A stretch of DNA of 32,000 bases from Planctomycetales bacterium. Its GTDB lineage: Bacteria; 4484-113; JAFGCY01. The notes under the pieces were generated by a model that was not told the DNA's origin, ran no database searches, and saw nothing but the letters and a program-made list of their open reading frames with translations. A program made the position numbers and the translations under genes. Shown in pieces: positions 4,568 through 20,259 of the stretch (position 1 is the first letter of the stretch; each line of letters begins with the position of its first letter). The stretch spans positions 1,110,001 through 1,142,000 of the forward strand of contig CP060262.1 in the NCBI GenBank assembly GCA_022646745.1, given 5' to 3'.

Positions 4568-4605
4568 CGAGGACCTTGGATCTGGGGTGTAGTGGGTAAT
4601 GAATC

Positions 4606-5247
4606 ATGAATAAAGAAATTAATTATGCGAAGGTCTATAAGCACCTGATAATCGAATTCGCAGATGGATCAAATGCTGAGCTGAAACTTGATCTTCAAAA
4701 CTGTGTTGTTGTATTGGAGATCAATGACGAGATAACCTTGCTAAAGCGATTTCGTCTGTCATTCCTTGGTTGCACAAACGTTGAAGTTGTCATGGAAGGA
4801 GAAGACGAGGATAGACAAACTGACCTGATATATCGCATACAGGAATCTGAGGCGGAGGGTGATCTTAGACACTTCCTGGTTGAATTCAATTCGGAATCTA
4901 CCGTGACAATTTCATGCAAGGACTTCACGCTGTCCAAAATTGGGCCACGAAGGGACTGGAAAGAGCAGGTTCTGAAGTTTGACGTTGACAAAGTCAATCA
5001 GCTAACAAAAGGACTGATAAATCACAAGATTCTGAGCGAGGAGGAAGCCGATAAGTATGCCTATGCATTGCTGACTATTGAGATGCATTGTGAACCTCTT
5101 TTTCTTGTGGATATCCCCAACTTGATCGAATTGTTGTCAAAAGAAAATCTATCAGATGCAGAACGAAAAGACGTTCTGGGCGATATACGGCTGGGCCTTT
5201 CTTCGATCGTGGAGCAGATTGACGATGCAAAGTTACTGGAAGTGTAA
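4606..5247 (+). CDS. Hypothetical protein, an AT-rich orphan gene
   Basis: Clean 213-aa ORF in a block of about 40% GC (hand count 24/60 for 4621-4680, versus 39/60 for 4441-4500). I recognise no motifs. Confidence 0.6.
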   Translation: MNKEINYAKVYKHLIIEFADGSNAELKLDLQNCVVVLEINDEITLLKRFRLSFLGCTNVEVVMEGEDEDRQTDLIYRIQESEAEGDLRHFLVEFNSESTVTISCKDFTLSKIGPRRDWKEQVLKFDVDKVNQLTKGLINHKILSEEEADKYAYALLTIEMHCEPLFLVDIPNLIELLSKENLSDAERKDVLGDIRLGLSSIVEQIDDAKLLEV

Positions 5248-5602
5248 AGCAGATGATGAGCACATACAAGATACAGTTCTTACGCTTTGCCGCTGGCCTG
5301 TTTGCCATCCACGCCCTGTTGGACGCCTGCGGCGACCCCCACCCGGGATGTCCAGCGGCAATCCTATGATGCTCTTCTTCGTGCCTTGGTGACTTGGTGG
5401 TTTCATTTTTGTTGGCCAGCAAGACACAAAGACACCAAGCAGATCGGATAGCGGCACTTGTTTTACGCAACCGGAAGTGGATATGGCGAAGAAGGCGTAT
5501 ATGGAAGTAGGGCGGCGGTAATACCGCCGCCGCGGATGGGGTGTCAGCCCATCCCTCCGTCATGCATGTTGCACGAGTGACCGGCTTGCGCCGGGATACC
5601 GC

Positions 5603-5990
5603 GCCGAGCTTGCGCTCGACCTCCGGAAAGCAATGAGTTGTGAAGAGTGAGCAATGATGGTTTCGCAGGTCGAGGTAACAACAAGCCTTTGTCTGGCTCA
5701 TGGCTCATTCTTCATTGCTCATGATTGGCTCATGCGGAATGTTTCGGCTGCATCCGCCTGCGGCTGGACTGACCTCCTCGCCGAGCTTGCGCTCGACCTC
5801 CGGAAAGCAATGAGTTGTGAAGAGTGAGCAATGATGGATTCGCAGGTCGAGGCAACAACAAGCCTTTGTCAGGCTCATTGCACAATCTTCATTGCTCATG
5901 ATTGGCACATGCAGAATGTTTCGGCTGCATCCGCCTGCGGCTGGGATGCAGAACCCCTGGTCAGTCCTGCCTGCGGCGGGACTGACCTCC
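5603..5990. repeat. Tandem direct repeat with a 177-bp period. Copy 1 is 5603-5779 and copy 2 is 5780-5990, with a 35-nt insertion near its end. Each copy contains an internal GAGCAAT-type hairpin
   Basis: GCCGAGCTTGCGCTCGACCTCCGGAAAGCAATGAGTTGTGAAGAGTGAGCAATGATGG starts at both 5603 and 5780. The copies differ at only a few positions over the first 100 nt or so. Confidence 0.85.
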
Positions 5991-6013
5991 GTGTCATCCT
6001 TACGGATGACCTC

Positions 6014-7142: not shown

Positions 7143-7853
7143 ATGGAAGCCGTGAAGCTCAGCCTCAACCTGCAGAACTGCGAGATCCCCGCCGGGTGCG
7201 CCAACTTCGGCGAGCTCGTTTCGTACATGGAGGAGCAGCAGATCCCGCAGGATGAGGTGATCACCCGCATCATCATCGACGGCAGCGATGTCAGTTCCGA
7301 GCGTGAGCTGGAGCTGGCCACGGAGCCGCTCAGCGAATTCGAGATCGTTGAGTTCTACTCCGCACGCACGCTTGACCTGGCCCGCCAGAGCATGCAGGAT
7401 GCAACAGAACTGCTGCCGGCGCTGCAGGCGGACCTGCCGAACGTGGCCACGGAGCTGCGCGGCGGCAACATCCAGGACGGGCTCCTGATGTTCGACAAAT
7501 GCCTGGAGATCATCAGCCACTACGTCAGCCTGGTGAATGCGATTGACGGGATCTACCGCCGGATCGACCCCAGTTTCCGCCTGCTGCCGAGTGCAGATGC
7601 GGCGACGGACGAGAACGAGACGGATTTCGATGTGGACAGCCTCAACCCGAACCCGGACAATGAGCTGAAGACCTTCGCCTCGATTGAGAACCTGCGCCAG
7701 AAGCTGATGAGCGTGGAGCAGGCCCAGGCGAACGGGGACAGCCTGCTTTTGGCGGACCTGATCGAGTTCGAGATCCTGCCAATCGTGGGGATCTGGAACA
7801 ACGAACTGCCGGTGCTGAACGGGCGGGTGCAAAGAGAAAACGCAAAAGCCTGA
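7143..7853 (+). CDS. Hypothetical acidic cytoplasmic protein
   Basis: 236-aa ORF with host-like GC3 bias, followed by an intrinsic terminator. I recognise no motifs and there is no obvious SD, so the start is uncertain. Confidence 0.6.
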   Translation: MEAVKLSLNLQNCEIPAGCANFGELVSYMEEQQIPQDEVITRIIIDGSDVSSERELELATEPLSEFEIVEFYSARTLDLARQSMQDATELLPALQADLPNVATELRGGNIQDGLLMFDKCLEIISHYVSLVNAIDGIYRRIDPSFRLLPSADAATDENETDFDVDSLNPNPDNELKTFASIENLRQKLMSVEQAQANGDSLLLADLIEFEILPIVGIWNNELPVLNGRVQRENAKA

Positions 7854-7957: not shown

Positions 7958-7984
7958 AAAGCGAGCCCCAGGGCTCGCTTTTTG
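7958..7984 (+). terminator. Rho-independent terminator
   Basis: GCGAGCC(CCAG)GGCTCGC stem followed by TTTTT. Confidence 0.75.
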
Positions 7985-7992
7985 CTTTCTTC

Positions 7993-8426
7993 GAGCAATG
8001 AAGAGTGAGCAATGAGAAGAAGTGGGATGAGGGATGGGGGATGAGGGATGAGCAGAAGCAGAATGAGAAGCAGTTAAGCAATGAGCAATGAAGAGTGAGC
8101 AATGAGCCCATGAGGCAGTTTGCCTGCTTCGTTGCATGGAATTATTTCTGACAACGGGTACTGAATTCGGGTTGTTGAACTCTGACAGTTCTGCATGGCG
8201 AGACAGAGATTGCAGCATTGGCTCATTGCTCACTCTTCATTGCTCATTGCTAACAAGGCGACTGGCAGTCGCCGCTCCAGCGAGCTGAATGCTCGCGCTC
8301 CATCCCCCGTCCCATTGTGCGCAAGCAAGTTGCGCACCTCCGCATCCCACATCCCACATCCCCCATCCCTCATCCCCCATCCCCCATCCCTCATCCCTCA
8401 TCCCTCATCCCTCATCCCCCATCCCG
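7993..8426. repeat. Composite nested palindromic element. GAGCAATGAAGAGTGAGCAATGAG occurs at 7993-8016 and 8084-8107, and its complement at 8221-8244. (GGGATGN)x4 at 8024-8052 faces (CATCCCN)x~12 at 8343-8425. A CAGAAG-type hexamer run lies at 8053-8073
   Basis: Direct reading of both strands. The inner pair encloses a loop of about 110 nt and the outer heptamer arrays are complementary. Confidence 0.8.
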
Positions 8427-8506
8427 CTTTTAGCACCTTGAGTCGGTAAACCCCGGCTTAATTTGCGTAAAGCGGGCAGTTTTTATATCGACCCCACTTT
8501 CAAAAA

Positions 8507-8621: not shown

Positions 8622-11336
8622 ATGAGTGTCACACGTATCTACCAGAACCCGTTGGCTATCAATGCGAACCGGAATCTGAAGATCACCGGAATGAACATCT
8701 CCAAGTCCCTGGAGCGCCTGTCATCCGGTTTGCGTATCAACCGTGCCGCTGACGACGCCGCCGGCCTCTCCATCAGTGAGAAGTTGCGCAGCCAGATCCG
8801 CGGCCTCAACCGCGCCAGCACCAACGCCCTGGACGGCATTTCGCTAATCCAGACCGCGGAAGGTGCACTCAACGAGACGCACTCGATCCTGCAGCGCATG
8901 CGCGAGCTGAGTGTCCAGGCTGCCAACGGCATCTACACCGCCGGTGACCGCCAGGCCATCCAGCAGGAGGTCGGGCAGCTGATCGATGAGATCAACCGCA
9001 TCTCGGACACCACCGAGTTCAACACCAAGACCCTGCTTGACGGAACGCTGGGCGCCCTGATCTCCACCGACGACTTCACCAAGGTCCGTGCGGCCGTGGT
9101 CGGCAACGTCGGCAACGGCGGAAACTTCGTGCTGCGTGCCGCGGCACTCAACACCGGCCAGCTGCAGGTGCAGAAGACCGACGTGTTCTCCACCGTCCAG
9201 CAGGCTGACGCCGTCGGCAAGATCAACTACGCCAAGACCTACCGGGCTGACGTTGACATCGCCACCTCCAGCGTGAGCGGCGTCGGCAAGACCGGCATCT
9301 ACCAGGTCGAGGTGATCAACGATGCCAACGGCTCGACCGCCGTGCAGAGCACCGTGGACGCAACCTTCCGCATCAGCGGCGCCTCCTTCGCGGGTGGCGG
9401 CCTGAGCGTCGGCCGTTCCCTGCAGGCCGAGGAGCTGACCGTCGGCGACAAGATCCTGCTGACCGTCAACACCCAGAGCGGCGTGCAGACCGTGAGCGTC
9501 GTGCTCGGCAGCCTCGGCACCGACATGACCAGCATGGCGGCCCTGATGAGCACCGCGCTCAACAACGGCATTGCCAACGTCTCCAACGTGACATTCAACG
9601 CGAGCGGCCAGTTCAGCATCAACGTCTCGAACGGCGGTTCCTCACTCTCGATCATCAGCACGCAGTTCGTTGACACCGACGGCAGCGGTTCCGACTTCTA
9701 CATCAGTTTCGGTGCCTCCGGCCAGTCCAACAACTTCTACAGTGCGGTGCAGTACAGCTTCTTCAACAACGGCAGCGCCACCTCCGGCAGCCTGACCCGC
9801 ACAGGCGCGAGCGGCGAGTACTTCTCGATCGGCGATGCCAACACCGGTACCGTCGGAATCCGCTTCGACGTGCGCCATGACTTCAGCCAGGTCAGCCTGG
9901 CCGGCGCGACCCAGACCGACACCCTGACCTGGAGCCGCTACGGTGGTGGCAACAGCATCCAGGAGTACGGCGAGGTCTGGCAGAGCGGCCCGGCCGTGAC
10001 GAACGGCACCTTCATGGTCAGCGCGATCTCCGAGCGCACCTATGCGATCTTCGAGTTTGACAACGAGTCATACACCAGCCTGGTGGCAGCCGGAACCGAC
10101 CAGGATGTCGCCCTGCTGACGGCGCGCGGCGCCCGCATGAGCAACCTCAACGGTGACCAGACCTTCTCGATCGCGATGGCCTTCGAGGGCGCGGTCGGCA
10201 CCAACCTGGAGAACATCCACTTCGCGGTGGATGGCATCATGCAAAGCGGCGAGACCGCTACCTTCAACATCAGCACCAACAACGTGCTGACGGCGGACCA
10301 GCTCAACACGCTGGCCAGCCTCAACCGCTTCCAGGAGTTCGGCGTGTTCAACGGCCGCGACAGCGTGGAACTGACCCTCTACCTGCGCGGATCCAGCAAC
10401 ACCACCACAGTCAACCTGACCAAGAACGACACCTTCGAGGACATGGCGGGCAAGATCAGCCTGGCGATGTACAACCCGGACGGATCCGGCATCATCACCA
10501 GCGGCATCATCAACCCACAGCAGATCCCCGACCTGGTGCATGTCAACACGGTCGGCATGGCGAAGGGCACGATGTCCATCACCACCGCGGTGCCGGGAGC
10601 TGAGATCGTGTTCGCCGGTGACGAGAGCATCCTGAAGGCCCTGTCCCTGATCGAGGTGCAGGCCGGCGAGGCTCCGGTGTACAGCATCAACGCCTTCAAC
10701 ATCGAGAAGAACCAGCAGGTCGGCAGCGTGATCGTCAACTCCAACGAGATCAACGGCCTGCTGCCCGGCGTGAAGGTCTTCTTCGACAACACGCTCGGCC
10801 TCAAGCTGGATCCCCAGCCCCCGGTCACGGCCCAGGGCGGCGGTACCAACAACCTGACGAGCTTCGGCTACCAGCAGCCGACCGAGCGCCCGAGCATCTC
10901 ACTGTCCGGCAGCGTGGAGAGCTTCTTCATCCACGTCGCCCCGCGTGACTTCACCCTGCAGATCGGTGCCAACCAGGGCCAGACGATCAACACCTTCCTG
11001 TCCGACATGAGTGCCGAGGCACTCGGCGTGGAGGGCCTGGTGGTCGTCACCAGCGACCTGGCACAGGAGAGCATCAGCATCGTCGACCACGCGATCAGCA
11101 AGGTCAGCTCTGAGCGTTCCCGTCTCGGTGCAATCCAGAACCGCCTGGAAAGCACGATCCGCAACTTGGACGTCAGCGCCGAGAACCTGACCTCCTCCGA
11201 GAGCCGCATCCGCGACGTGGACGTGGCGCTCGAGACGATTGCCAGCACCCGCAACCAGATCCTGCTGCAGGCTGGCGTAGCTGCGATGGCCCAGGCCAAC
11301 CAGCTGCCCAACCAGATGCTGCAGCTGCTGCGCTAG
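8622..11336 (+). CDS. fliC: Giant flagellin paralog 1 (904 aa)
   Basis: N-terminus has LERLSSGLRINRAADDAAGLSISEKLRSQIRGLNRASTNALDGISLIQTAEGAL. C-terminus has SSERSRLGAIQNRLESTIRNLDVSAENLTSSESRIRDVDVALETIASTRNQILLQAGVAAMAQANQLPNQMLQLLR. These are the canonical flagellin D0/D1 signatures. Confidence 0.95.
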   Translation: MSVTRIYQNPLAINANRNLKITGMNISKSLERLSSGLRINRAADDAAGLSISEKLRSQIRGLNRASTNALDGISLIQTAEGALNETHSILQRMRELSVQAANGIYTAGDRQAIQQEVGQLIDEINRISDTTEFNTKTLLDGTLGALISTDDFTKVRAAVVGNVGNGGNFVLRAAALNTGQLQVQKTDVFSTVQQADAVGKINYAKTYRADVDIATSSVSGVGKTGIYQVEVINDANGSTAVQSTVDATFRISGASFAGGGLSVGRSLQAEELTVGDKILLTVNTQSGVQTVSVVLGSLGTDMTSMAALMSTALNNGIANVSNVTFNASGQFSINVSNGGSSLSIISTQFVDTDGSGSDFYISFGASGQSNNFYSAVQYSFFNNGSATSGSLTRTGASGEYFSIGDANTGTVGIRFDVRHDFSQVSLAGATQTDTLTWSRYGGGNSIQEYGEVWQSGPAVTNGTFMVSAISERTYAIFEFDNESYTSLVAAGTDQDVALLTARGARMSNLNGDQTFSIAMAFEGAVGTNLENIHFAVDGIMQSGETATFNISTNNVLTADQLNTLASLNRFQEFGVFNGRDSVELTLYLRGSSNTTTVNLTKNDTFEDMAGKISLAMYNPDGSGIITSGIINPQQIPDLVHVNTVGMAKGTMSITTAVPGAEIVFAGDESILKALSLIEVQAGEAPVYSINAFNIEKNQQVGSVIVNSNEINGLLPGVKVFFDNTLGLKLDPQPPVTAQGGGTNNLTSFGYQQPTERPSISLSGSVESFFIHVAPRDFTLQIGANQGQTINTFLSDMSAEALGVEGLVVVTSDLAQESISIVDHAISKVSSERSRLGAIQNRLESTIRNLDVSAENLTSSESRIRDVDVALETIASTRNQILLQAGVAAMAQANQLPNQMLQLLR

Positions 11337-11423
11337 GCATAAGGCAACCAGCCCAGCCGTACCGGGTCCATCAAGCGGGCCGGGCGGCGGGGATGAGCAT
11401 CGCCGGATTAGGCAAGGGATGGA

Positions 11424-11463
11424 GCCCCCCGGGTGGAAACGCCCGGGGGGCCTTTCAGTTTTC
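11424..11463 (+). terminator. Rho-independent terminator of flagellin 1
   Basis: GCCCCCCGGG(TGGAAACG)CCCGGGGGGC followed by CTTTCAGTTTT. Confidence 0.8.
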
Positions 11464-11661
11464 AGGGACGAGGGACCGGGGATCGGCAGTTGGCAGAATC
11501 AGAATGAGAAGCAGCAGAATGCAATCGTCAGTGAGCTGATTCCTTTACCTGCTTCTGCATCTGCATCTGCTTCTCATCCTGCATCTGATTCTGATTCTAC
11601 TTCTGTTTCTGCTTCTGTTTCTTAATTTTTACCTGACAACTGACCACTGCCAACAGACCAC
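11464..11661. repeat. Post-terminator palindromic element. The purine-rich arm (GGGACC, CAGTTGGCAG, GAATCA/GAAGCA units) spans 11464-11522. The pyrimidine-rich arm has 12 CTGNTT hexamers (11549-11622) and then CTGACAACTGACCACTGCCAAC
   Basis: Direct reading. The arms are imperfect reverse complements in the same unit order. Confidence 0.75.
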
Positions 11662-11703
11662 TTTTCAATGGCTAAATTACCCTGAATATTATTAGTCTCC
11701 TTA

Positions 11704-11723
11704 TCAAGTTCCGGGAATAGATT
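11704..11723 (+). promoter_or_regulatory. Candidate promoter element TCAAGTT-N6-GAATAGATT about 93 nt upstream of flagellin 2
   Basis: Position and the TAGATT core are shared with the elements upstream of flagellins 1 and 3. Confidence 0.25.
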
Positions 11724-11794
11724 ACTGATACTCGTTAGGCTTTGTCAGAGCACCACGGCCTTTAGCAAGCTGTGGCCGGCCATAGCAACCGAGC

Positions 11795-11813
11795 ACGTTC
11801 AAGGAGGAATGTG
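11795..11813 (+). promoter_or_regulatory. Conserved 19-nt SD leader of flagellin 2
   Basis: ACGTTCAAGGAGGAATGTG, identical to 8601-8619. Confidence 0.8.
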
Positions 11814-11815
11814 TA

Positions 11816-14527
11816 ATGAGTGTCACACGTATCTACCAGAACCCGCTGGCAATCAATGCCAACCGGAACCTGAAGATCACCGGAATGAACATCTCCAAGT
11901 CATTGGAGCGCCTGTCTTCCGGATTGCGCATCAACCGTGCCGCTGACGACGCAGCGGGACTGACCATCAGTGAGAAGCTGCGCAGCCAGATCCGCGGCCT
12001 CAACCGCGCCAGCACCAACGCGCTGGACGGCATCTCCCTGATCCAGACGGCGGAGGGCGCCCTCAACGAGACGCACTCGATCCTGCAGCGCATGCGTGAG
12101 CTGAGCGTGCAGGCCGCCAACGGCATCTACACCGCCAACGACCGCCAGGCGATCCAGTCCGAGGTCGGGCAGCTGATCGACGAGATCAACCGCATCTCCG
12201 ACACCACCGAGTTCAACACCAAGACCCTGCTTGACGGTACGCTCGGTGCCCTGATCTCCACCGACGACTTCACCAAGGTCCGCGCGGCGGTGGTCGGCAA
12301 TGTCGGCAACGGCGGCAACTTCGTGCTGCGCGCCGCGGCACTGGACACCGGCCAGCTGCAGGTGCAGAAGACCGACGTGTTCTCCACGGTGCAGACCGGC
12401 GACGCGGTCGGCTCGATCAACTTCCAGAAGACCTACCGCGCCGACGTTGACATTGCCACCGCCGGCGTGAGCGGTGTGGGCCAGACCGGCCTGTACCAGG
12501 TCGAGGTGATCCGCGATGCCAACGGCTCCACCGCCGTGCAGAGCACCGTGGACGCCACCTTCCGCATCAGCGGCGCGTCCTATGCGGGCGGCGGCCTGAG
12601 CCTCGGCCGCTCCCTGCAGGCCGAGGAGCTGACCGTCGGCGACAAGATCCTGCTCACGGTGAACACCCAGAGCGGCGTCGAGACCGTCAGCATCGTGATC
12701 GGCAGCCTCGGCACCGACATGACGAGCCTCGCCGGCCTGATGAGCACCGCTCTCAACAACGGCCTGGCAAACGTCTCGAGCGTGGGCTTCAACGCCGCCG
12801 GCCAGTTCAGCATCGGGGTCTCCAACGGTGGCTCCAGCCTGAGCATCATCAGCACGCAGTTCGTTGACACCGACGGCAGCGGCTCGGACTTCTACATCAG
12901 CTTCGGCTCCAGCGGGCAGTCCAACAGCTTCTACAGCGCGGTGCAGTACAGCTTCTTCAACAACGGCAGTGCGACTTCCGGCAGCCTGGCACGCGCCGGT
13001 GGTGCCAGCATCAGCGGCCAGTACTTCTCGATCGGCGATGCCAACACCGGTACCGTCGGCATCCGGCTCGACGTGCGCTTCGACTTCAGCACGGTCAGCC
13101 TGGCCGGCTCCAACGCGAGCGACACCCTGAAGTGGGAGCGCTTCACCGGCGGCAACAGCCTGCAGGAGTACGGTTCCGTCTGGCAGGAGGGCAGCGCCGT
13201 CACCAACGGCACCTTCCTCGTCAGTGCGATCTCGGAGCGCACATATGCGATCTTCGAGTTCGACAACCAGGCCTACACCAGCCTGACGAGCGGCGGCACC
13301 GACCAGGAGGTCGCACTGCTGACCGCCCGCGGCGCGCGGATGAGCAATGTCAACGGCGACCAGACCTTCTCGATCGCCGTGGCCTTCGAGGGCGCGGTCG
13401 GCACCAACCTGGAGAACATCCACTTCGCGGTGGACGGCATCCTGCAGAGCGGAGAGACGGCGACCTTCAACATCAGCACCAACAACGTGCTGACGGCGGA
13501 CCAGCTCAATACCCTGGCAAGCCTCAACCGCTTCCAGGAGTTCGGCGTGTTCAACGGCCGCGACAGTGTGGAGCTGACCCTCTACCTGCGCGGTTCCTCG
13601 CAGACCACCACCGTCAACCTGACCAAGAACGACACATTCGAGGACATGGCGGGCAAGATCTCGCTGGCGATGTACAACCCGGATGGGACGGGCATCATCA
13701 CGAGCGGCATCATCAACCCGCAGCAGATCCCGGATCTGGTGCACGTGAACACGGTCGGCATGGCGAAGGGCACGATGTCCATCACCACCGCCGTGCCCGG
13801 CGCCGAGGTCGTGTTCGCCGGTGACGAAAGCCTGCTGAAGGCCCTGTCACTGGTGGAGATCCAGGAGGGCGAGGCCCCGGTGTACAGCATCAACGCCTTC
13901 AACATCGAGAAGAACCAGACGGTCGGCTCCACGATCGTGCGGTCCAACGAGATCAACGGCCTGCTGCCCGGTGTGAAGCTGTTCTTCGACAACACGCTCG
14001 GCCTCAAGCTGGATCCCCAGCCCCCGGTCAACACCACCAACAACCTCACGAGCTTCGCGTACCAGCAGCCCAACGAGCGTCCTGACATCTCCCTGTCCGG
14101 CAGCATCGAGAGCTTCTTCGTACACGTCGCCCCGCGTGCCTTCAACCTGCAGATCGGCGCAAACCAGGGCCAGACGATCGACACCTACCTGTCCGACATG
14201 AGTGCGGAAGCACTCGGTGTGGAGGGACTCGTCGTCGTCACCAGTGACCTGGCGCAGGAGAGCATCAGCATCGTCGACCACGCGATCAGCAAGGTCAGCT
14301 CTGAGCGTTCCCGCCTGGGAGCGATCCAGAACCGTCTCGAGAGCACGATCCGCAACCTGGACGTGAGCGCCGAGAACCTGACCTCTTCAGAGAGCCGCAT
14401 CCGTGACGTGGACGTGGCACTGGAGACCATCGCCAGCACGAGGAACCAGATCCTGCTGCAGGCTGGTGTGGCTGCGATGGCCCAGGCCAACCAGCTCCCT
14501 CAGAACATGCTGCAGCTGCTGAGGTAG
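11816..14527 (+). CDS. fliC: Giant flagellin paralog 2 (903 aa)
   Basis: Collinear with paralog 1 over its whole length, with the same D0/D1 termini. Confidence 0.95.
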   Translation: MSVTRIYQNPLAINANRNLKITGMNISKSLERLSSGLRINRAADDAAGLTISEKLRSQIRGLNRASTNALDGISLIQTAEGALNETHSILQRMRELSVQAANGIYTANDRQAIQSEVGQLIDEINRISDTTEFNTKTLLDGTLGALISTDDFTKVRAAVVGNVGNGGNFVLRAAALDTGQLQVQKTDVFSTVQTGDAVGSINFQKTYRADVDIATAGVSGVGQTGLYQVEVIRDANGSTAVQSTVDATFRISGASYAGGGLSLGRSLQAEELTVGDKILLTVNTQSGVETVSIVIGSLGTDMTSLAGLMSTALNNGLANVSSVGFNAAGQFSIGVSNGGSSLSIISTQFVDTDGSGSDFYISFGSSGQSNSFYSAVQYSFFNNGSATSGSLARAGGASISGQYFSIGDANTGTVGIRLDVRFDFSTVSLAGSNASDTLKWERFTGGNSLQEYGSVWQEGSAVTNGTFLVSAISERTYAIFEFDNQAYTSLTSGGTDQEVALLTARGARMSNVNGDQTFSIAVAFEGAVGTNLENIHFAVDGILQSGETATFNISTNNVLTADQLNTLASLNRFQEFGVFNGRDSVELTLYLRGSSQTTTVNLTKNDTFEDMAGKISLAMYNPDGTGIITSGIINPQQIPDLVHVNTVGMAKGTMSITTAVPGAEVVFAGDESLLKALSLVEIQEGEAPVYSINAFNIEKNQTVGSTIVRSNEINGLLPGVKLFFDNTLGLKLDPQPPVNTTNNLTSFAYQQPNERPDISLSGSIESFFVHVAPRAFNLQIGANQGQTIDTYLSDMSAEALGVEGLVVVTSDLAQESISIVDHAISKVSSERSRLGAIQNRLESTIRNLDVSAENLTSSESRIRDVDVALETIASTRNQILLQAGVAAMAQANQLPQNMLQLLR

Positions 14528-14573
14528 TGAAGCCTCTGACGCTTCGCAGCATCTCACTTGATCAGTGAGCAGC

Positions 14574-14603
14574 GCCCCCGGGCCAGTGGCCCGGGGGCTT
14601 TTT
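14574..14603 (+). terminator. Rho-independent terminator of flagellin 2
   Basis: GCCCCCGGGCC(AGT)GGCCCGGGGGC followed by TTTTT. Confidence 0.85.
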
Positions 14604-14609
14604 AATAAT

Positions 14610-14757
14610 CAGTTGGCAGTGGGCAGTGGGGAGTATCAGAATGAGAATGAGAAACAGAAGCAGCAGAAGAGGGTAAACAGTTGTAAGTTTCCTGACCTGC
14701 TTCTCATTCTGATTCTGATTCTGAGCCTGACCACTGATTTCTGACAACTGGCCACTG
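14610..14757. repeat. Post-terminator palindromic element. The left arm CAGTTGGCAGTGGGCAGTGGGGAGTATCAGAATGAGAATGAGAAACAGAAGCAGCAGAAG spans 14610-14669. The right arm CTGCTTCTCATTCTGATTCTGATTCTGAGCCTGACCACTGATTTCTGACAACTGGCCACTG spans 14697-14757
   Basis: The reverse complement of the left arm aligns by eye with the right arm in the same unit order. The loop is about 27 nt. Confidence 0.8.
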
Positions 14758-14989
14758 TTTTTCTGACTTTGCGGCTGAAATCGAAAATAAATCCGGTCCA
14801 TTTTCCAGCGACCCTGACCAATGGTCTATTCTCCGCCCCCATTTTCTTAACCGCGGCTGAAGCGACGCCGATATTGGTTGCCAATCTCCCCGTTTGATTC
14901 CTTCATTCCAGGCCGCTCCTGTCCCGGCATTCGCCCTCTCCTCCCCGCGCTACACCCCGCAGGCAGTTTATCGGCCACAATTGCAGCAG

Positions 14990-15009
14990 CTTTAGTTTTC
15001 CGGTAGATT
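14990..15009 (+). promoter_or_regulatory. Candidate promoter element CTTTAG-N6-GGTAGATT about 88 nt upstream of flagellin 3
   Basis: Identical motif and spacing to 8507-8526. TTGCAG lies 17 nt upstream of TAGATT. Confidence 0.3.
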
Positions 15010-15075
15010 TTTCCCGCCGGACAGCAGGACCAAGTGTCAGAAATGGCAGGTGACGGCTGGCCGAGCATCCCGCCT

Positions 15076-15094
15076 ACGTTCAAGGAGGAATGTG
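15076..15094 (+). promoter_or_regulatory. Conserved 19-nt SD leader of flagellin 3
   Basis: ACGTTCAAGGAGGAATGTG, identical to 8601-8619. Confidence 0.8.
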
Positions 15095-15096
15095 GC

Positions 15097-17820
15097 ATGA
15101 GTGTTTCTCGTATATATCAGAACCCGTTGGCAATCAACGCCAACCGTAACCTCAAGATCACGGGGATGAACATCTCCAAGTCCCTGGAAAGACTGTCCAG
15201 TGGTCTGAGGATCAACCGTGCCGCAGATGACGCCGCCGGCCTCTCCATCAGTGAGAAGTTGCGCAGCCAGATCCGCGGCCTCAACCGCGCCAGCACCAAC
15301 GCCCTGGACGGCATCAGCCTGATCCAGACCGCGGAAGGTGCGCTCAACGAGACCCACAGCATCCTGCAGCGCATGCGTGAGCTGTCCGTGCAGGCCGCCA
15401 ACGGCATCTACACCGCCGGCGACCGCATCGCGATCCAGCAGGAAGTCAGCCAGCTCGTGGGGGAAATCAACCGCATCTCCGACACCACGGAGTTCAACAC
15501 CAAGACCCTGCTCGACGGGACGCTCGGCGCCCTGATCTCGACTGACGACTTCAGCCGGATCAGCGCGGCCGTGACCGGCAACGTCGGCAAGGGTGGCAAC
15601 TTCGTGCTGAAGGCCGCCGCGCTGACAACCGGCAACCTGCAGGTGCAGAAGTCGGACGTGTTCTCCACGGTGCAGCAGGCGGACGCCGTCGGCCGGATCA
15701 ACTCCGCGCTGACCTTCCGCGCGGATGCGGAGATCGCCACCGCCAGCACAAACGGCGTCGGGCATACCGGCATCTACCAGGTCGAGGTGCTGAATGACAG
15801 TTTCGGCAGCGTGGCCGTGCAGAGCACCGGTCCCGGCACCTTCCGCATCAGCGGTGCCTCGATCAGCGGCGGCGCCCTGAGCATCGGCCGCAACCTGCAG
15901 GCGGAGGAGCTGACCGTCGGCGACAAGATCCTGCTGACAGTCAACACCCAGAGCGGCGTGAGCACGGTCAGCATCGTGCTCGGCAGCCTCGGCACAAACA
16001 TGACGAGCCTGGCCGGACTGATGAGCAACGCGCTGAACGGCGGCTTTGCCAACGTCTCGAACGTGACCTTCAACGCCAGCGGACAGTTCAGCATCAACGT
16101 CTCCAACGGCGGCTCGACCCTGTCCATCATCAGCTCCAAGTTCGTTGACACAGATGGCAGCGGCTCGGACTTCTACATCAGCTTCGGCAGCGCCGGTGGT
16201 TCGAACACCTTCTACAGTTCGGTGCAGTACAGCTTCTTCAACAACGGCAGCGCCACCTCCGGCAGCCTGTCCCGCGGCGGCGGTGCCAGCATCAGCGGCC
16301 ACTTCTTCTCGATCGGCGATGCCAACACGGGCACGATCGGCATCCGCTTCGACACCCGCTATGACTTCAGCCAGGTCAGCCTCGCCAACACGACGGCGAC
16401 CGATACCATCAACTGGAGCCGCTGGGACGGTGGCAACAGCATCCAGGAGTACGGCAAGGTCTGGCAGGATGGACCGGCCGTTACCAACGGCACCTTCATC
16501 GTGTCCAGTGCCGGTGCCCGCACATATGCAATCTACGAATTCGACAACCAGGCATACACTGACCTCGTCGCAGGCGGCGTGGACCAGGACATCGCCTTCA
16601 AGACGGCCCGCGGCGACCGGCAGGTCGACATCAACGGCGACAACCTGTTCTCGATCGGCGTGGCCTTCGAGGGCGCGGTCGGCAGCGACCTGGAGAACAT
16701 CCACTTCGCGCTGGACGGCATCATGCAGGTCGGTGAGCAGGCCACCTTCAACATCAGCACCAACAACGTGCTGACGGCGGACCAGCTCAATACCCTGGCA
16801 AGCCTCAACCGCTTCCAGGAGTTCGGCGTGTTCAACGGCCGCGACAGCGTGGAGCTGACGCTCTTCCTGCGCGGGTCCAGCGAGTCCACCACGATCAACC
16901 TGACCAAGAATGACAGCTTCGAGGACATGGCCGGCAAGATCAGCCTGGCGATGTACAACACCGACGGCAGCGGCATCATCAAGAGCGGCATCATCAACCC
17001 GCAGCAGGTGCCGGACCTGGTGCACGTGAACACGATCGGCATGGCGAAGGGCACGATGTCCATCACCACGGCGGTACCGGGTGCCGAAGTGGTGTTCGCC
17101 GGTGACGAAAGCATCCTGAAGGCCCTGTCCCTGATCGAGATCGAGGAGGGCACGGCCCCCGTCTACAGCATCAGCGCCTTCAACATCGAGAAGAACGCGG
17201 AGGTCGGCAAGGTGATCGTCAACTCCAACGAGATCAACGGCCTGCTGCCCGGCGTGAAGCTGTTCTTCGACAACACACTCGGCCTCAAGCTGGATGCCCA
17301 GCCGCCGACCAGCATCGCCGGCGGCGGCACGAACGGCATGATCAGCTTCGGCTACCAGGCCCCGACGGAGCGCCCGACGATCTCGCTCGGTGGCAACATC
17401 GAAAGCTTCTTCGTCCATGTCGCGCCGCGTGACTTCAGCCTGCAGATCGGTGCCAACCAGGGCCAGACGATCGACACCTTCATCGCCGACATGAGTGCCC
17501 AGGCACTCGGCGTGGAGGGCCTGGTGGTGGTCACGAGTGACCTCGCCCAGGAGGCGATCAGCATCGTTGACAATGCGATCAACACGGTCAGCAGCCAGCG
17601 CTCCAGGCTGGGTGCCCTGCAGAACCGACTGGAAAGCACGATCCGCAACCTGGATGTCAGCGCCGAGAACCTGACCTCATCCGAGAGCCGCATCCGCGAC
17701 GTGGACGTGGCCCTCGAGACGATCGCCTCGACCCGCAACCAGATCCTGCTGCAGGCAGGTGTGGCGGCGATGGCCCAGGCCAACCAGATGCCGCAGCAGA
17801 TGCTGCAGCTGCTGGGCTAA
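15097..17820 (+). CDS. fliC: Giant flagellin paralog 3 (907 aa), the most diverged copy
   Basis: The ORF is open from 15034. Homology to paralogs 1 and 2 (MSVSRIYQNPLAINANRNLK) and the conserved SD leader place the start at ATG 15097. Confidence 0.93.
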   Translation: MSVSRIYQNPLAINANRNLKITGMNISKSLERLSSGLRINRAADDAAGLSISEKLRSQIRGLNRASTNALDGISLIQTAEGALNETHSILQRMRELSVQAANGIYTAGDRIAIQQEVSQLVGEINRISDTTEFNTKTLLDGTLGALISTDDFSRISAAVTGNVGKGGNFVLKAAALTTGNLQVQKSDVFSTVQQADAVGRINSALTFRADAEIATASTNGVGHTGIYQVEVLNDSFGSVAVQSTGPGTFRISGASISGGALSIGRNLQAEELTVGDKILLTVNTQSGVSTVSIVLGSLGTNMTSLAGLMSNALNGGFANVSNVTFNASGQFSINVSNGGSTLSIISSKFVDTDGSGSDFYISFGSAGGSNTFYSSVQYSFFNNGSATSGSLSRGGGASISGHFFSIGDANTGTIGIRFDTRYDFSQVSLANTTATDTINWSRWDGGNSIQEYGKVWQDGPAVTNGTFIVSSAGARTYAIYEFDNQAYTDLVAGGVDQDIAFKTARGDRQVDINGDNLFSIGVAFEGAVGSDLENIHFALDGIMQVGEQATFNISTNNVLTADQLNTLASLNRFQEFGVFNGRDSVELTLFLRGSSESTTINLTKNDSFEDMAGKISLAMYNTDGSGIIKSGIINPQQVPDLVHVNTIGMAKGTMSITTAVPGAEVVFAGDESILKALSLIEIEEGTAPVYSISAFNIEKNAEVGKVIVNSNEINGLLPGVKLFFDNTLGLKLDAQPPTSIAGGGTNGMISFGYQAPTERPTISLGGNIESFFVHVAPRDFSLQIGANQGQTIDTFIADMSAQALGVEGLVVVTSDLAQEAISIVDNAINTVSSQRSRLGALQNRLESTIRNLDVSAENLTSSESRIRDVDVALETIASTRNQILLQAGVAAMAQANQMPQQMLQLLG

Positions 17821-17851: not shown

Positions 17852-17891
17852 GCCTCCTCCGGCCGGATGGTCCGGGGGAGGCCGCTTTTTT
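17852..17891 (+). terminator. Rho-independent terminator of flagellin 3
   Basis: GCCTCCTCCGG(CCGGATGGT)CCGGGGGAGGC followed by CGCTTTTTT. Confidence 0.8.
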
Positions 17892-17977
17892 CAGGTTACT
17901 GGTATCAGGTTGCAGGTTGCGGAGATCAGGGAAAACGGAGTATTGGCAGAAGCAGAATAAGAAGCAGAAGTAGAATC
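17892..17977. repeat. Post-terminator half element. It has CAGGTTN heptamers (17892-17930) and a GGCAGAAGCAGAATAAGAAGCAGAAGTAGAATC hexamer run (17945-17977), with no complementary arm before the convergent gene
   Basis: Direct reading. Confidence 0.6.
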
Positions 17978-18501: not shown

Positions 18502-20259
18502 CTACTCAGTAGCCTCGTAGCAACCCGCATCCAGCAGGCCGTCGAACACTGGCTGTGGTCGCATGTTGCCATCGAAGTCCAGCGGCGGGAAGCCGAGGAT
18601 GTCCGTGCCCAGTTCAGTTGCAAGCGATCCGGGCAGGATGTGGTAGTCGTCGATCAGTGAATTGAGGAACACAGCCTCATCAGTCATTTCAATGCTGTGC
18701 TGGTCGTTGCCTGTGTTTGACTTCCAGTCAGCCAGGTCGTAGACATTCGCGTCGTCATCAGGCGTGAAGCGGCCGATGGCCAGGTTGTAGTCACTGGAGA
18801 AGCCCGCCAGGCAGTCCGCATCAAGGCTGATCGCGCCGCGGAAGTCATGCCGGTTCCAGAGGATGTTGTTGCGCAGGGTATTGCCGGTGCTGGCGTTTGC
18901 GATCCGGATGCACCAGCGGCCGTCAGCCGCCTGCACGATCGTGTTGCAGACCACCAGGTTGCCGGTGGAGGTCAGGCCGTCCTGGCTGAACAGGGTGATG
19001 CCGGAGGCATGGTTGCCATAGAGAAGGTTGTTGCGGATCACGCTGTCGCGCAGGCCGTCCATGTTGAGGGCCGCACCACCGCCGCTGCCGTTGTCAAAGC
19101 AGACATTGCGCTCAATCAGCGCACCACTCATGATCCCGTCGCCACCCTGGCTGGCATCGGCGTTGAACTGGATCCCGCCGCGCTTGTTGCTGAAGCAGAC
19201 ATTGCCGCGGGCGATGTTCTCATCACCACTGTTGCTGAGGTAGATCCCGTGTTCGTCCCCGCTGAAGCTGCAGGTGTTGTACTCCACCACCAGCCTGTCC
19301 GTGAAGCCGCTGAAGATGCCCCAGCGGGCATTACCGGTGCAGTTGTTGTGCCGGAGGATGATGTCATGCGCCGGCGTCGCAGCACTGCCGACCACGCGGA
19401 TGCCTGCCCGCGAGCAGTCACGTACCGTGAAGCCCTCGACCACGATGTCGTGGATGTCCGGGGCCTCGAAATTCTCGATGTTGATCCCGTCCGGGGTTTC
19501 CACATTGTCAAAGATCACTGCTGCCCCGTCCAGTGCACTGAAGGTGATCGGGGAGCCCGGCATACCGCTGCGCGACAGCATGAAGCCCTCGTAGTTGCCC
19601 GGCCGCACGATCACCGTGTCTCCCGCCACCACGTTGTCAGCAGCCTTCTGCAGGGTGCCCCAGGGCAGGGTCACACTGCCGGGGTTGTTGTCATTGCCAC
19701 CGCTGCTGACAGGTGCGACATAGAACGTGTTGCCACCGTGTTCCTCGTCGTAGACAAGCGCCAGGCTGTCCAGCTGTGACTGCATCCCGCCGGACTTGAG
19801 CGCCGGGGCCAGCACCACGCAGTAGCAGAAGCCGCCCGGGGAAATCAGCCCCTGCGCATCTGACAGGTCAATCAGGGCCTCGCCCTCACTGAGCACGCTG
19901 AAGAAGCGCCAGCGCCCGAGCTGGAAGTCGGCCGCGGCGATGTAGAACAGGCCGCTGCCGCTGGCAATCAGGCTGTCCAGCGGTCCCTCGGGGGCCGGCA
20001 CCTGGAAGATGCACCAGGCATGCTCATCCTGCGTGGGCTTCAGCACGCGGCGTTCCTCATCAAGCGGTTCGCAGTTGAACTGGCTGTGGGGCTGTACGAG
20101 GCTCAGGCGGAAGGATTCGATGATGCTCGGCTGTCGAAGCTGGTCGAGGCCGTTGATGCCAGGCAGCTCTCCATCCACGGGCTGCAGCAGCGGCGCGGCG
20201 GAAGCGCAGGCCGCCATCAGGCAGGCCAGCAGCAGGCATGGCAGGTGGATCAGCCTCAC
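18502..20259 (-). CDS. Secreted right-handed parallel beta-helix repeat protein (pectate-lyase-fold superfamily) with an N-terminal domain of about 190 aa and unknown fold
   Basis: Signal peptide MRLIHLPCLLLACLMAACASA. TFYVAPVSSGGNDNNPGSVTLPWGTLQKAADNVVAGDTVIVRPGNYEGF is the typical beta-helix entry motif. Repeated N-x-x-x-G-I PbH1-like turns follow (NARWGIF, HGIYLSNSGDENIARGNVCFSN, GGIQFNAD, NHASGITLF). Confidence 0.8.
   Translation of the reverse strand: MRLIHLPCLLLACLMAACASAAPLLQPVDGELPGINGLDQLRQPSIIESFRLSLVQPHSQFNCEPLDEERRVLKPTQDEHAWCIFQVPAPEGPLDSLIASGSGLFYIAAADFQLGRWRFFSVLSEGEALIDLSDAQGLISPGGFCYCVVLAPALKSGGMQSQLDSLALVYDEEHGGNTFYVAPVSSGGNDNNPGSVTLPWGTLQKAADNVVAGDTVIVRPGNYEGFMLSRSGMPGSPITFSALDGAAVIFDNVETPDGINIENFEAPDIHDIVVEGFTVRDCSRAGIRVVGSAATPAHDIILRHNNCTGNARWGIFSGFTDRLVVEYNTCSFSGDEHGIYLSNSGDENIARGNVCFSNKRGGIQFNADASQGGDGIMSGALIERNVCFDNGSGGGAALNMDGLRDSVIRNNLLYGNHASGITLFSQDGLTSTGNLVVCNTIVQAADGRWCIRIANASTGNTLRNNILWNRHDFRGAISLDADCLAGFSSDYNLAIGRFTPDDDANVYDLADWKSNTGNDQHSIEMTDEAVFLNSLIDDYHILPGSLATELGTDILGFPPLDFDGNMRPQPVFDGLLDAGCYEATE

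Follow-up and report, generated by a model that had tools for sequence, protein, structure and literature searches.

Fast-changing hairpin elements of mirrored 6- and 7-nucleotide units behind the flagellin genes of a Planctomycetales bacterium

In many bacterial genomes, few simple repeats are as over-represented as those with a heptamer unit, and their origin and role have been a question for three decades. In Xanthomonas, arrays of the heptamer GGGAATC are 89-93% intergenic and lie on average 28 nt from the upstream open reading frame (ORF) (Rehm et al., 2015, PMC4692102). These arrays are under-represented between divergent genes, and in 70-75 cases two of them are convergent and inverted, with the potential to form a stem-loop or a cruciform; sister species differ widely in the sequence and length of the arrays, to which no function could be assigned (PMC4692102). 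An account centred on the TAACTGA heptamer, together with the work reviewed in it, describes heptamers as over-represented in many bacteria (MacGregor, 2015, PMC4679880), and a slippage hypothesis for heptamers is part of the published work on Xanthomonas and cyanobacteria. That account cites the heptanucleotide long simple-sequence repeats of cyanobacteria (LSSR, also STRR; Mazel, 1990; Mrazek, 2007), reports indels in 7-nt steps between strains as well as relatives of the same gene order with shorter, repeat-free spacers, and gives TAACTGA as common to Beggiatoaceae, Cyanobacteria and Bacteroidetes (PMC4679880). Here, we analyse a 32,000-nt stretch of a Planctomycetales genome (contig CP060262.1, positions 1,110,001 to 1,142,000; hereafter the window), in which hairpin-forming elements made of degenerate 6-7-nt units stand behind several genes. 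The focal element, at 14610-14757, lies between the second and third of three tandem flagellin genes. The arrays in these elements gain, lose and interconvert units very fast, and at this locus the divergence of the entire element outpaces that of neighbouring non-coding DNA several-fold.

The focal element (all features are given on the plus strand) is bordered on the left by the intrinsic terminator of flagellin gene 2 (14574-14603), which a terminator scan resolved into an 11-bp all-G:C stem (14574-14598) and a T-run (14599-14603). Its purine-rich 5' arm (14610-14666) reads CAGTTGG CAGTGGG CAGTGGG GAGTAT CAGAAT GAGAAT GAGAAA CAGAAG CAGCAGAAG; the loop or spacer (14667-14696) carries at its 3' end TTTCCTGACCTGCTTCT, similar to TTCCTTTACCTGCTTCT at the equivalent position of the element after flagellin 1; and the pyrimidine-rich 3' arm (14697-14757) reads CTGCTT CTCATT CTGATT CTGATT CTGAGC CTGACCACTGATTTCTGACAACTGGCCACTG, with TTTTT (14758-14762) directly 3' of it. 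CAGTGGN heptamers and CAGAAK hexamers are thus combined, and the right arm is an imperfect complement of the left with the units in mirrored order (14610-14663 and 14697-14750, 54 nt, 76% complementary, 33 nt apart). Tandem Repeats Finder (TRF) detected arrays of period 6 and 7 within the element at 14610-14634, 14638-14653 and 14697-14724. When folded as RNA, the element has a minimum free energy (MFE) of -62.3 kcal/mol, compared with -37.7 +/- 3.8 in shuffles that keep the composition of each arm (z = -6.5), and as DNA -31.9 vs -17.4 +/- 3.2 kcal/mol, a value matched by 0 of 200 shuffles, so that the pairing exceeds the mere meeting of a purine-rich and a pyrimidine-rich tract. On its right, the element gives way to the region 5' of flagellin gene 3 (14758-15096), presumably promoter and 5' untranslated region, which is conserved among strains, in contrast to the element itself. 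Upstream of flagellin gene 3, GCCGATAT (14867-14874) is what we take, by eye, to be a -10-like sequence for the flagellar sigma-28 factor; it falls within this flank, conserved while the neighbouring element varies. An independent assembly from a different sample (L002) is 100% identical to the window across 11495-15779, so the focal element is no assembly artefact. No second copy of it was found in the window or in the related loci retrieved, and a metagenome scan with its conserved right flank gave 0 matches.

Comparison with related genomes revealed how these elements change. In a separate strain (L001, 97.7% identical to the window overall), the elements occupy identical sites, between the same terminator and the downstream flank TTTTTCTGACTTT, and their differences from those of the window consist of whole units and of one unit variant turned into another. 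At the focal site, one CAGTTGG unit was lost, a TTTCTCA was gained and units were interconverted (18 substitutions and 18 gap columns over 155 alignment columns), with conserved flanks. Across the three spacers compared, substitutions between the window and L001 reach 13-37% within the elements, against 4-12% for spacer DNA outside them and 1-3% for coding sequence, and gap columns make up 12-22% of the elements; overall, the difference is 3-5x greater in elements than in flanks. In the metagenome-assembled genome (MAG) AC1.30 (L009, ~90% nucleotide identity to the window), the site after the flagellin-2-type gene holds an 83-nt hairpin of CAGGGAT/CGGGGAC units facing GGTCCCTG units, in which CAGGGAY/GGGGACC units replace CAGTGGN/CAGAAK in both arms and the borders (the terminator T-run and TTTTTCTGACTTT) are conserved; the flagellin-2 terminator is kept in both L001 and L009. 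After its flagellin-1-type gene, L009 has the outer GGGAC... and CTGACNA heptamers in common with the window and is missing the inner hexamer palindrome. Only a ~60-nt remnant is found at that position in a relative with 87% flagellin identity (L010), and in a relative with 70% flagellin identity (L011), syntenic for AhpC-GNAT-DUF8042-three flagellins, the spacers are 82-98 bp long and without arrays. Because terminator and promoter form fixed borders, the same sites can be traced across strains at ~98%, 90% and lower identity. The turnover that the earlier note on this DNA proposed to look for in related genomes is indeed there (same sites, different units, elements faster than flanks), and its guess of expansion driven by slippage fits the unit-step changes between the window and L001.

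Hairpin potential survives this turnover: the focal MFE is -62.3 kcal/mol in the window and -62.1 in L001, whereas an equal number of random substitutions yields -46.5 +/- 6.7. By inspection, the changes in L001 hit unit positions that are already variable and form no clean compensatory pairs, and we therefore attribute the robustness of the hairpin to unit redundancy: the units of an arm are near-synonymous and pair with any unit of the opposite arm, so that the potential to fold persists. The two arms also expand independently (4 vs 12 GGGATGN/CATCCCN units and ~5 vs 12 hexamers in other elements of the window, and one-armed tracts at 2747 and 17892), and these unequal arms together with the strain comparisons argue for evolution in place by slippage, not for the repeated arrival of finished elements.

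We consider it somewhat more likely than not that the focal feature is a compound inverted microsatellite, generated through slippage together with inverted copying, tolerated where it lies, after a terminator and ahead of a promoter, and without sequence-specific function. The element would occupy the only unconstrained DNA between the intrinsic terminator and the next promoter, and its arrays would grow via replication slippage. The complementary arm would be made and kept in step by inverted copying, either through intramolecular template switching or through synthesis that folds back across a hairpin already present, so that complementary arrays would arise on both sides together and in mirrored order. 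For a sequence-specific function the elements are probably not required; at most, an element might provide a second weak terminator-like hairpin with its T-run, and spacing between transcription units.

The focal element is one of several in the window, where TRF found 19 arrays of period 6 or 7, 17 of them in the ~14.5% of the sequence that is non-coding (binomial P about 1e-12; G+C of the window, 61%). After flagellin 1 (11464-11662), outer heptamers of the GGGAC type pair with CTGACNA heptamers around an inner module of CAGAAK hexamers, which has ~5 units on the left and 12 of the CTGCTT type on the right. The DUF8042 gene (the gene at 7143) is followed by a nested compound element (7993-8429, from TRF, arm pairing and folding) that runs from GAGCAAT units through GGGATGN x4 and GCAGAA units to a GAGCAAT hairpin (arms 8077-8117 and 8211-8251, 93% complementary), and on through small GC hairpins to CATCCCN x12. 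Between convergent gene ends lies a 177-bp tandem duplication (5602-5944, 1.9 copies, 95% identical), each copy of which holds a GAGCAAT-type hairpin (5633-5657/5698-5722 and 5810-5834/5875-5899); the 177-bp unit is single-copy in L001, and the spacer downstream of AhpC is near-unalignable across three strains except for the gene-proximal hairpin. Near the window edge, a hairpin of 9-nt units (338-444, arms 338-378/404-444) sets GAATAGT-type units against ACTATTCNN, preceded by a CAGTGGT array (315-339) and by CATCCCN and TCCCCGG arrays (11-39, 78-102) that are unpaired and may have their partners outside the window. Two tracts are purine-rich only: GCAGAA/GGAAGC-type units directly 3' of the stop codon of the SLC12-type transporter (2747-2787), and CAGGTTN followed by GCAGAA-type units after the flagellin-3 terminator (17892-17975); no complementary arm was found for either.

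The terminator scan placed intrinsic-terminator-like hairpins at 7958-7981, 11424-11451, 14574-14598 and 17868-17884, and the elements after the 7143 gene and flagellins 1-3 begin 8-13 nt beyond these stems and stop 150-340 nt short of the next start codon. The earlier note had described a set of hairpin-forming elements of degenerate 6-7-nt units in mirrored order, placed after gene ends and, behind the flagellins, directly downstream of terminators, and had asked whether they pair beyond composition-matched shuffles. Arm pairing and folding bear out such a set, as the terminator scan and the shuffles of the focal element do its position and its pairing. As for the genes that it listed, the structures at 5633-5899, 7993-8429, 11464-11662 and 14610-14757 are paired, those at 2747 and 17892 are one-armed, and a further paired element occurs at 338-444.

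Two other regularities were seen around these arrays. Many heptamer arrays have a 21-22-nt super-period, with three variants in fixed order spanning ~two helical turns (window 8343-8425, 14727-14767 and 170-215; L012 1346-1409; L021 353-415; L033 991-1041 and 5927-6004). Compound elements are also accompanied by T-rich direct repeats, CGCTTTTTGC at 7976-7985 with CGCTTTTAGC at 8425-8434 and TTTTT at 14599-14603 and 14758-14762 in the window; further flanking repeats are CTTTTCA on both sides in L001 (6110-6125/6295-6306) and TTCCAT on both sides in L009 (16026-16043/16125-16138). The T-rich repeats coincide with terminator T-runs.

Placement and handedness were surveyed in ~207 kb of lineage DNA, comprising the window itself, the part of L003 that extends past it, L009 and 19 loci ascertained by a repeat; the related genomes brought up by the repeat-based scan are MAGs labelled 'UBP7 HKST-UBA01/03' and 'AC1.30'. 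Outside predicted genes lie 74 of 77 arrays, with genes called by a crude caller of our own. Of the convergent spacers 52% are occupied by arrays, compared with 27% of the tandem and 17% of the divergent ones, a bias consistent with arrays being tolerated at sites where they disturb no promoter. In the related loci, single arrays and pairs are about equally common, and the single ones stand in both orientations next to genes. Pairs, by contrast, are strictly ordered: purine-rich precedes pyrimidine-rich in 12 of 12 spacers with both array types, and no pyrimidine-first pair was found in the ~207 kb. Similarly, among 26 occurrences of the 23-mer GAGCAATGAAGAGTGAGCAATGA of the GAGCAAT hairpins, 18 have the complementary arm in the 300 nt that follow and none has it on the upstream side (the three window occurrences in this count are mutually non-independent). 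The rule spans ~ten unit types in this lineage as well as GAGCAAT hairpins in Bacteroidota, and agrees with the 'convergent' pairs reported in Xanthomonas. It is not, as the earlier note had it, a matter of how the elements are turned with respect to the upstream gene: read on the opposite strand, the pyrimidine arm becomes a purine arm and takes first place, so an inverted repeat that is purine-first on one strand is so on the other too, and no orientation relative to gene or replication can be defined. For the same reason, the minus-strand element that the note lists after the thioredoxin gene repeats the statement made for the plus-strand elements.

The GAGCAAT hairpins, which are often nested in compound elements, are a separate dispersed family of small elements. 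Their arms, ~30 nt long, consist of GAGCAAT, GAGCAAT and GAAGAGT units that form a 21-nt super-unit, and the exact 23-mer GAGCAATGAAGAGTGAGCAATGA recurs in 19 stretches of three related MAGs. Since their loops have a loose common core, the hairpins form a dispersed family of ~95 nt, the presence or absence of which varies between strains. The single 'family' of the earlier note is heterogeneous and mixes two things, palindromic microsatellites that change in place and dispersed GAGCAAT hairpins. No flanking duplications were found at 20-odd of these hairpins. A search of 25 loci, a sample far from genome-wide, for a parent or autonomous element in the form of two arms 1-5 kb apart with a gene between them also gave none. 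Arm complementarity in 19 hairpins is 20.6 within copies vs 20.7 between copies (p = 0.53), a comparison that carries no information, since the copies had been picked by an exact 16-mer of the purine arm. The exact 23-mer, including its variant GAAGAGT unit, also forms purine-first hairpins in Hymenobacter cavernae (L013 3499-3645), in Hymenobacter sp. B1770 (L025 2020-2112) and, three times within 8 kb, in a Bacteroidales MAG of 39% GC (L015 3519-3583, 6470-6541 and 6968-7054), against a chance expectation of ~0.02 in the collection searched, by our own estimate. These Bacteroidota carriers range from 39 to 64% GC, the loops of their hairpins show no relation to the loops in the window's lineage and one copy adjoins a tRNA gene. 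The 23-mer is otherwise rare, with 1 match in a metagenome collection and 0 in viral contigs. Its occurrence in distant phyla indicates shared ancestry, transfer or a strong common constraint.

A second repeat family, REP/BIME-like, was also noticed, with units of ~22-25 nt (window 5603-5625, 5780-5802, 5975-6013 and 8255-8342; L009 7350-7470; L016 1010-1060 and 3300-3350; L017 3060-3190). The unit has a G+C-rich stem of 6-8 bp, a 4-5-nt loop and an (A/G)CCTCC or GCTCC tail; on the opposite strand it is GGAGG-first, with loops that are often GNRA-like. Units are tandemly amplified to a strain-dependent copy number, as with TTGCCAGACTTACATCTGACCTCC x4 in L009.

Several points weigh against a compound microsatellite that is simply tolerated. 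The appearance of a new unit type in both arms at once is beyond slippage alone, and it is the template-switch step, which we infer, that would cover it. Retention of hairpin stability is equally expected under selection for structure. Mobility contributes to at least part of the set, as seen in the dispersed GAGCAAT copies and in the hexamer modules after flagellins 1 and 2, which have part of their loop in common. The T-rich flanking repeats (5-10 nt) could be target-site duplications left by insertion, or the terminator T-run repeated. The related loci were ascertained via one repeat motif. Most of all, the strict purine-first order lacks an explanation under a neutral model and is the main unexplained point.

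Among the alternatives, the one that survives best, though we consider it unlikely for the focal feature, is that these are miniature mobile elements (MITE- or REPIN-like) inserted beside terminator hairpins or into each other and moved in trans by a transposase, with the unit arrays as terminal inverted repeats. The dispersal of the GAGCAAT hairpins (the exact 23-mer across three MAGs, loosely conserved loop cores, presence or absence between strains), their occurrence in two Hymenobacter genomes and one Bacteroidales MAG, the T-rich direct repeats beside compound elements and the nested architecture are all in line with it. Yet no near-identical focal copy exists elsewhere in the DNA examined, orthologous elements alter in place by whole units, many elements have two very unequal arms or just one, the 20-odd GAGCAAT hairpins are without flanking duplication, the flanking T-runs coincide with terminator tails and no long element with such ends and a transposase gene is found in the sampled loci.

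At a similarly low level of probability, and only tentatively, we entertain that the invariable purine-first order may stem from a hitherto undescribed process, either a strand-asymmetric builder of palindromic microsatellites (for example fold-back synthesis solely from the purine-rich nascent strand) or a cross-phylum mobile hairpin with heptamer ends. If either is true, the elements would be a distinct self-propagating class and not passive microsatellites.

A function of the hairpins in RNA, as back-up and possibly bidirectional terminators, as insulators against read-through into the next flagellin or as 3' stabilisers, seems improbable to us. The position after gene ends and the hairpin stability kept across strains would suit it, as would the pyrimidine-rich 3' arm, which puts U/C-rich sequence after the inner stems in either direction, and the report that most Xanthomonas arrays are transcribed (Rehm et al., PMC4692102). 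In three tandem spacers, moreover, T4-T5 follows the distal arm on the sense strand, which leaves room for a weak back-up terminator role. However, the elements lie beyond strong terminators, one-armed tracts are common and close relatives do without elements. The focal element itself is a 148-nt, A/T-richer, imperfect hairpin beyond the true terminator at 14574-14603, to which the TTTTT that follows lends a loose terminator resemblance only. Mismatches in the arms are chiefly transversions (74, vs 19 G:T and 9 A:C) and not G:U, and neither strand folds consistently better (no consistent RNA-strand preference in the MFE of both strands or in the G:T vs A:C counts), which is unlike an RNA helix under selection. 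Rfam 15 gave 0 matches at gathering thresholds; under permissive settings, only sub-threshold matches to eukaryotic microRNA-precursor models, that is generic hairpins, were obtained, so no RNA family is recognised.

Equally doubtful is an action at the DNA level, through G-quadruplexes, i-motifs or cruciforms, through phased sites for protein binding, or as barriers to or hot spots of recombination between the tandem flagellin paralogues. GGGATGN and GGGGACC arrays have at least four G3 runs, like the G-quadruplex-forming heptamers of Xanthomonas and Nostoc, the DNA hairpin is stable, the 21-nt super-period of many arrays comes to ~two helical turns, and flagellin copy number varies between strains, with an element duplicated together with its gene. 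But the focal, GAGCAAT and CAGAAK units are without G-tracts, which excludes a G-quadruplex as the common cause: no four G3 runs were found in the focal arms (CAGTGGN, CAGAAK), and at least four occur only in some other arrays of the window, such as GGGATGN at 8024-8052. Elements also follow unrelated genes, and their turnover is too fast for a specific binding site. Flagellin phase variation as a general role was rejected, as the same arrays follow unrelated genes.

In the window lie genes for an SLC12-type permease, an AhpC/TSA protein, a GNAT acetyltransferase, a DUF8042 protein, three tandem giant flagellins (903-928 aa), a NosD-like protein, cytochrome c assembly and a polyprenyl synthase. 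From 4568 up to the AhpC gene, ~1.4 kb may be non-coding, repeat-rich DNA (window 4568-6013); the ORF at 4606-5247 (213 aa) has no Pfam match and was left uncalled by a codon-usage-based caller. AC1.30 (L009 10001-22700, compared with window 8622-17820) has four flagellin copies vs the three of the window, in the order fla2-like, fla1-like, fla2-like, fla3-like. Two of the four are broken into small ORFs in the gene calls, by frameshifts or long-read errors, and the element after the fla2-like gene was duplicated along with the gene (12787-12866, 19045-19120).

It remains to place these elements among known repeats. The REP, BIME and REPIN sequences of proteobacteria are small intergenic palindromes, often located after gene ends, clustered, and arranged in inverted doublets that form hairpins; REPs have a fixed sequence of 20-40 nt and depend on RAYT transposases. 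In size and distribution, the GAGCAAT hairpins and the small units of GC stem plus CCTCC resemble them. The 6-7-nt unit arrays, unlike REPs, are not a fixed sequence, and the focal element has no conserved copy elsewhere; it lacks the conserved multi-copy palindrome that marks a REP or REPIN, whereas the GAGCAAT sub-type does have many copies. Miniature inverted-repeat transposable elements (MITEs) are small, non-coding and nestable, with inverted terminal arms, and the elements described here are likewise small, non-coding and nestable, with inverted arms. They appear to differ from MITEs in that no clear target-site duplication, no uniform full-length focal copies and, in the sampled loci, no parent insertion sequence were seen, and in their in-place change in unit steps.

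With the LSSR/STRR repeats, the elements share head-to-tail arrays of degenerate copies, for which the unit size of that kind is 5-11 nt with heptamers dominant, a non-coding bias and whole-unit change between strains at a fixed site. With the TAACTGA repeats as well, they have in common long intergenic regions in which a heptamer stands among related ones, indels that differ between strains by steps of 7 nt, relatives of the same gene order with shorter repeat-free spacers and a heptamer shared by distant phyla; the units CCACTGA and CAACTGA found here are one base off TAACTGA. Yet TAACTGA arrays, as described, are nearly all direct, with one inverted case in Beggiatoa, where they lie just upstream of start codons, and neither the paired hairpin design nor terminator adjacency is a hallmark of theirs.

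The likeness to the paired Xanthomonas arrays extends to tandem degenerate heptamers with a strong intergenic bias near the 3' end of the upstream ORF, closer to it than to the next start and rare between divergent genes. It also extends to convergent arrays on opposite strands, G- or purine-rich first (here the focal arms 14610-14663 and 14697-14750), and to large variation in length and sequence at the same intergenic sites. The unit of the Xanthomonas type is GGGNATC, with at least four G3 tracts, unlike most focal units, which have no G-quadruplex capacity, and G-quadruplex potential cannot be the general cause of such repeats. Also different here are the combination of several unit types, hexamers included, nested and mirrored within one element, the start right after canonical terminators and the uncultured host lineage. 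In practice, such elements lengthen intergenic DNA, break assemblies and yield spurious ORF calls in MAGs; the strict purine-first rule that the paired arrays follow and the cross-phylum GAGCAAT hairpin are the points worth following. A full-text literature search for the repeat sequences themselves gave no match. The design, on the other hand, for which the earlier note knew of no described bacterial family, has published precedents in the convergent heptamer pairs of Xanthomonas (PMC4692102) and in the heptamer repeats of cyanobacteria, Beggiatoaceae and Bacteroidetes (PMC4679880), and the elements add a new and more elaborate example to a kind of bacterial repeat that is known though unexplained; they do not constitute a class of their own.

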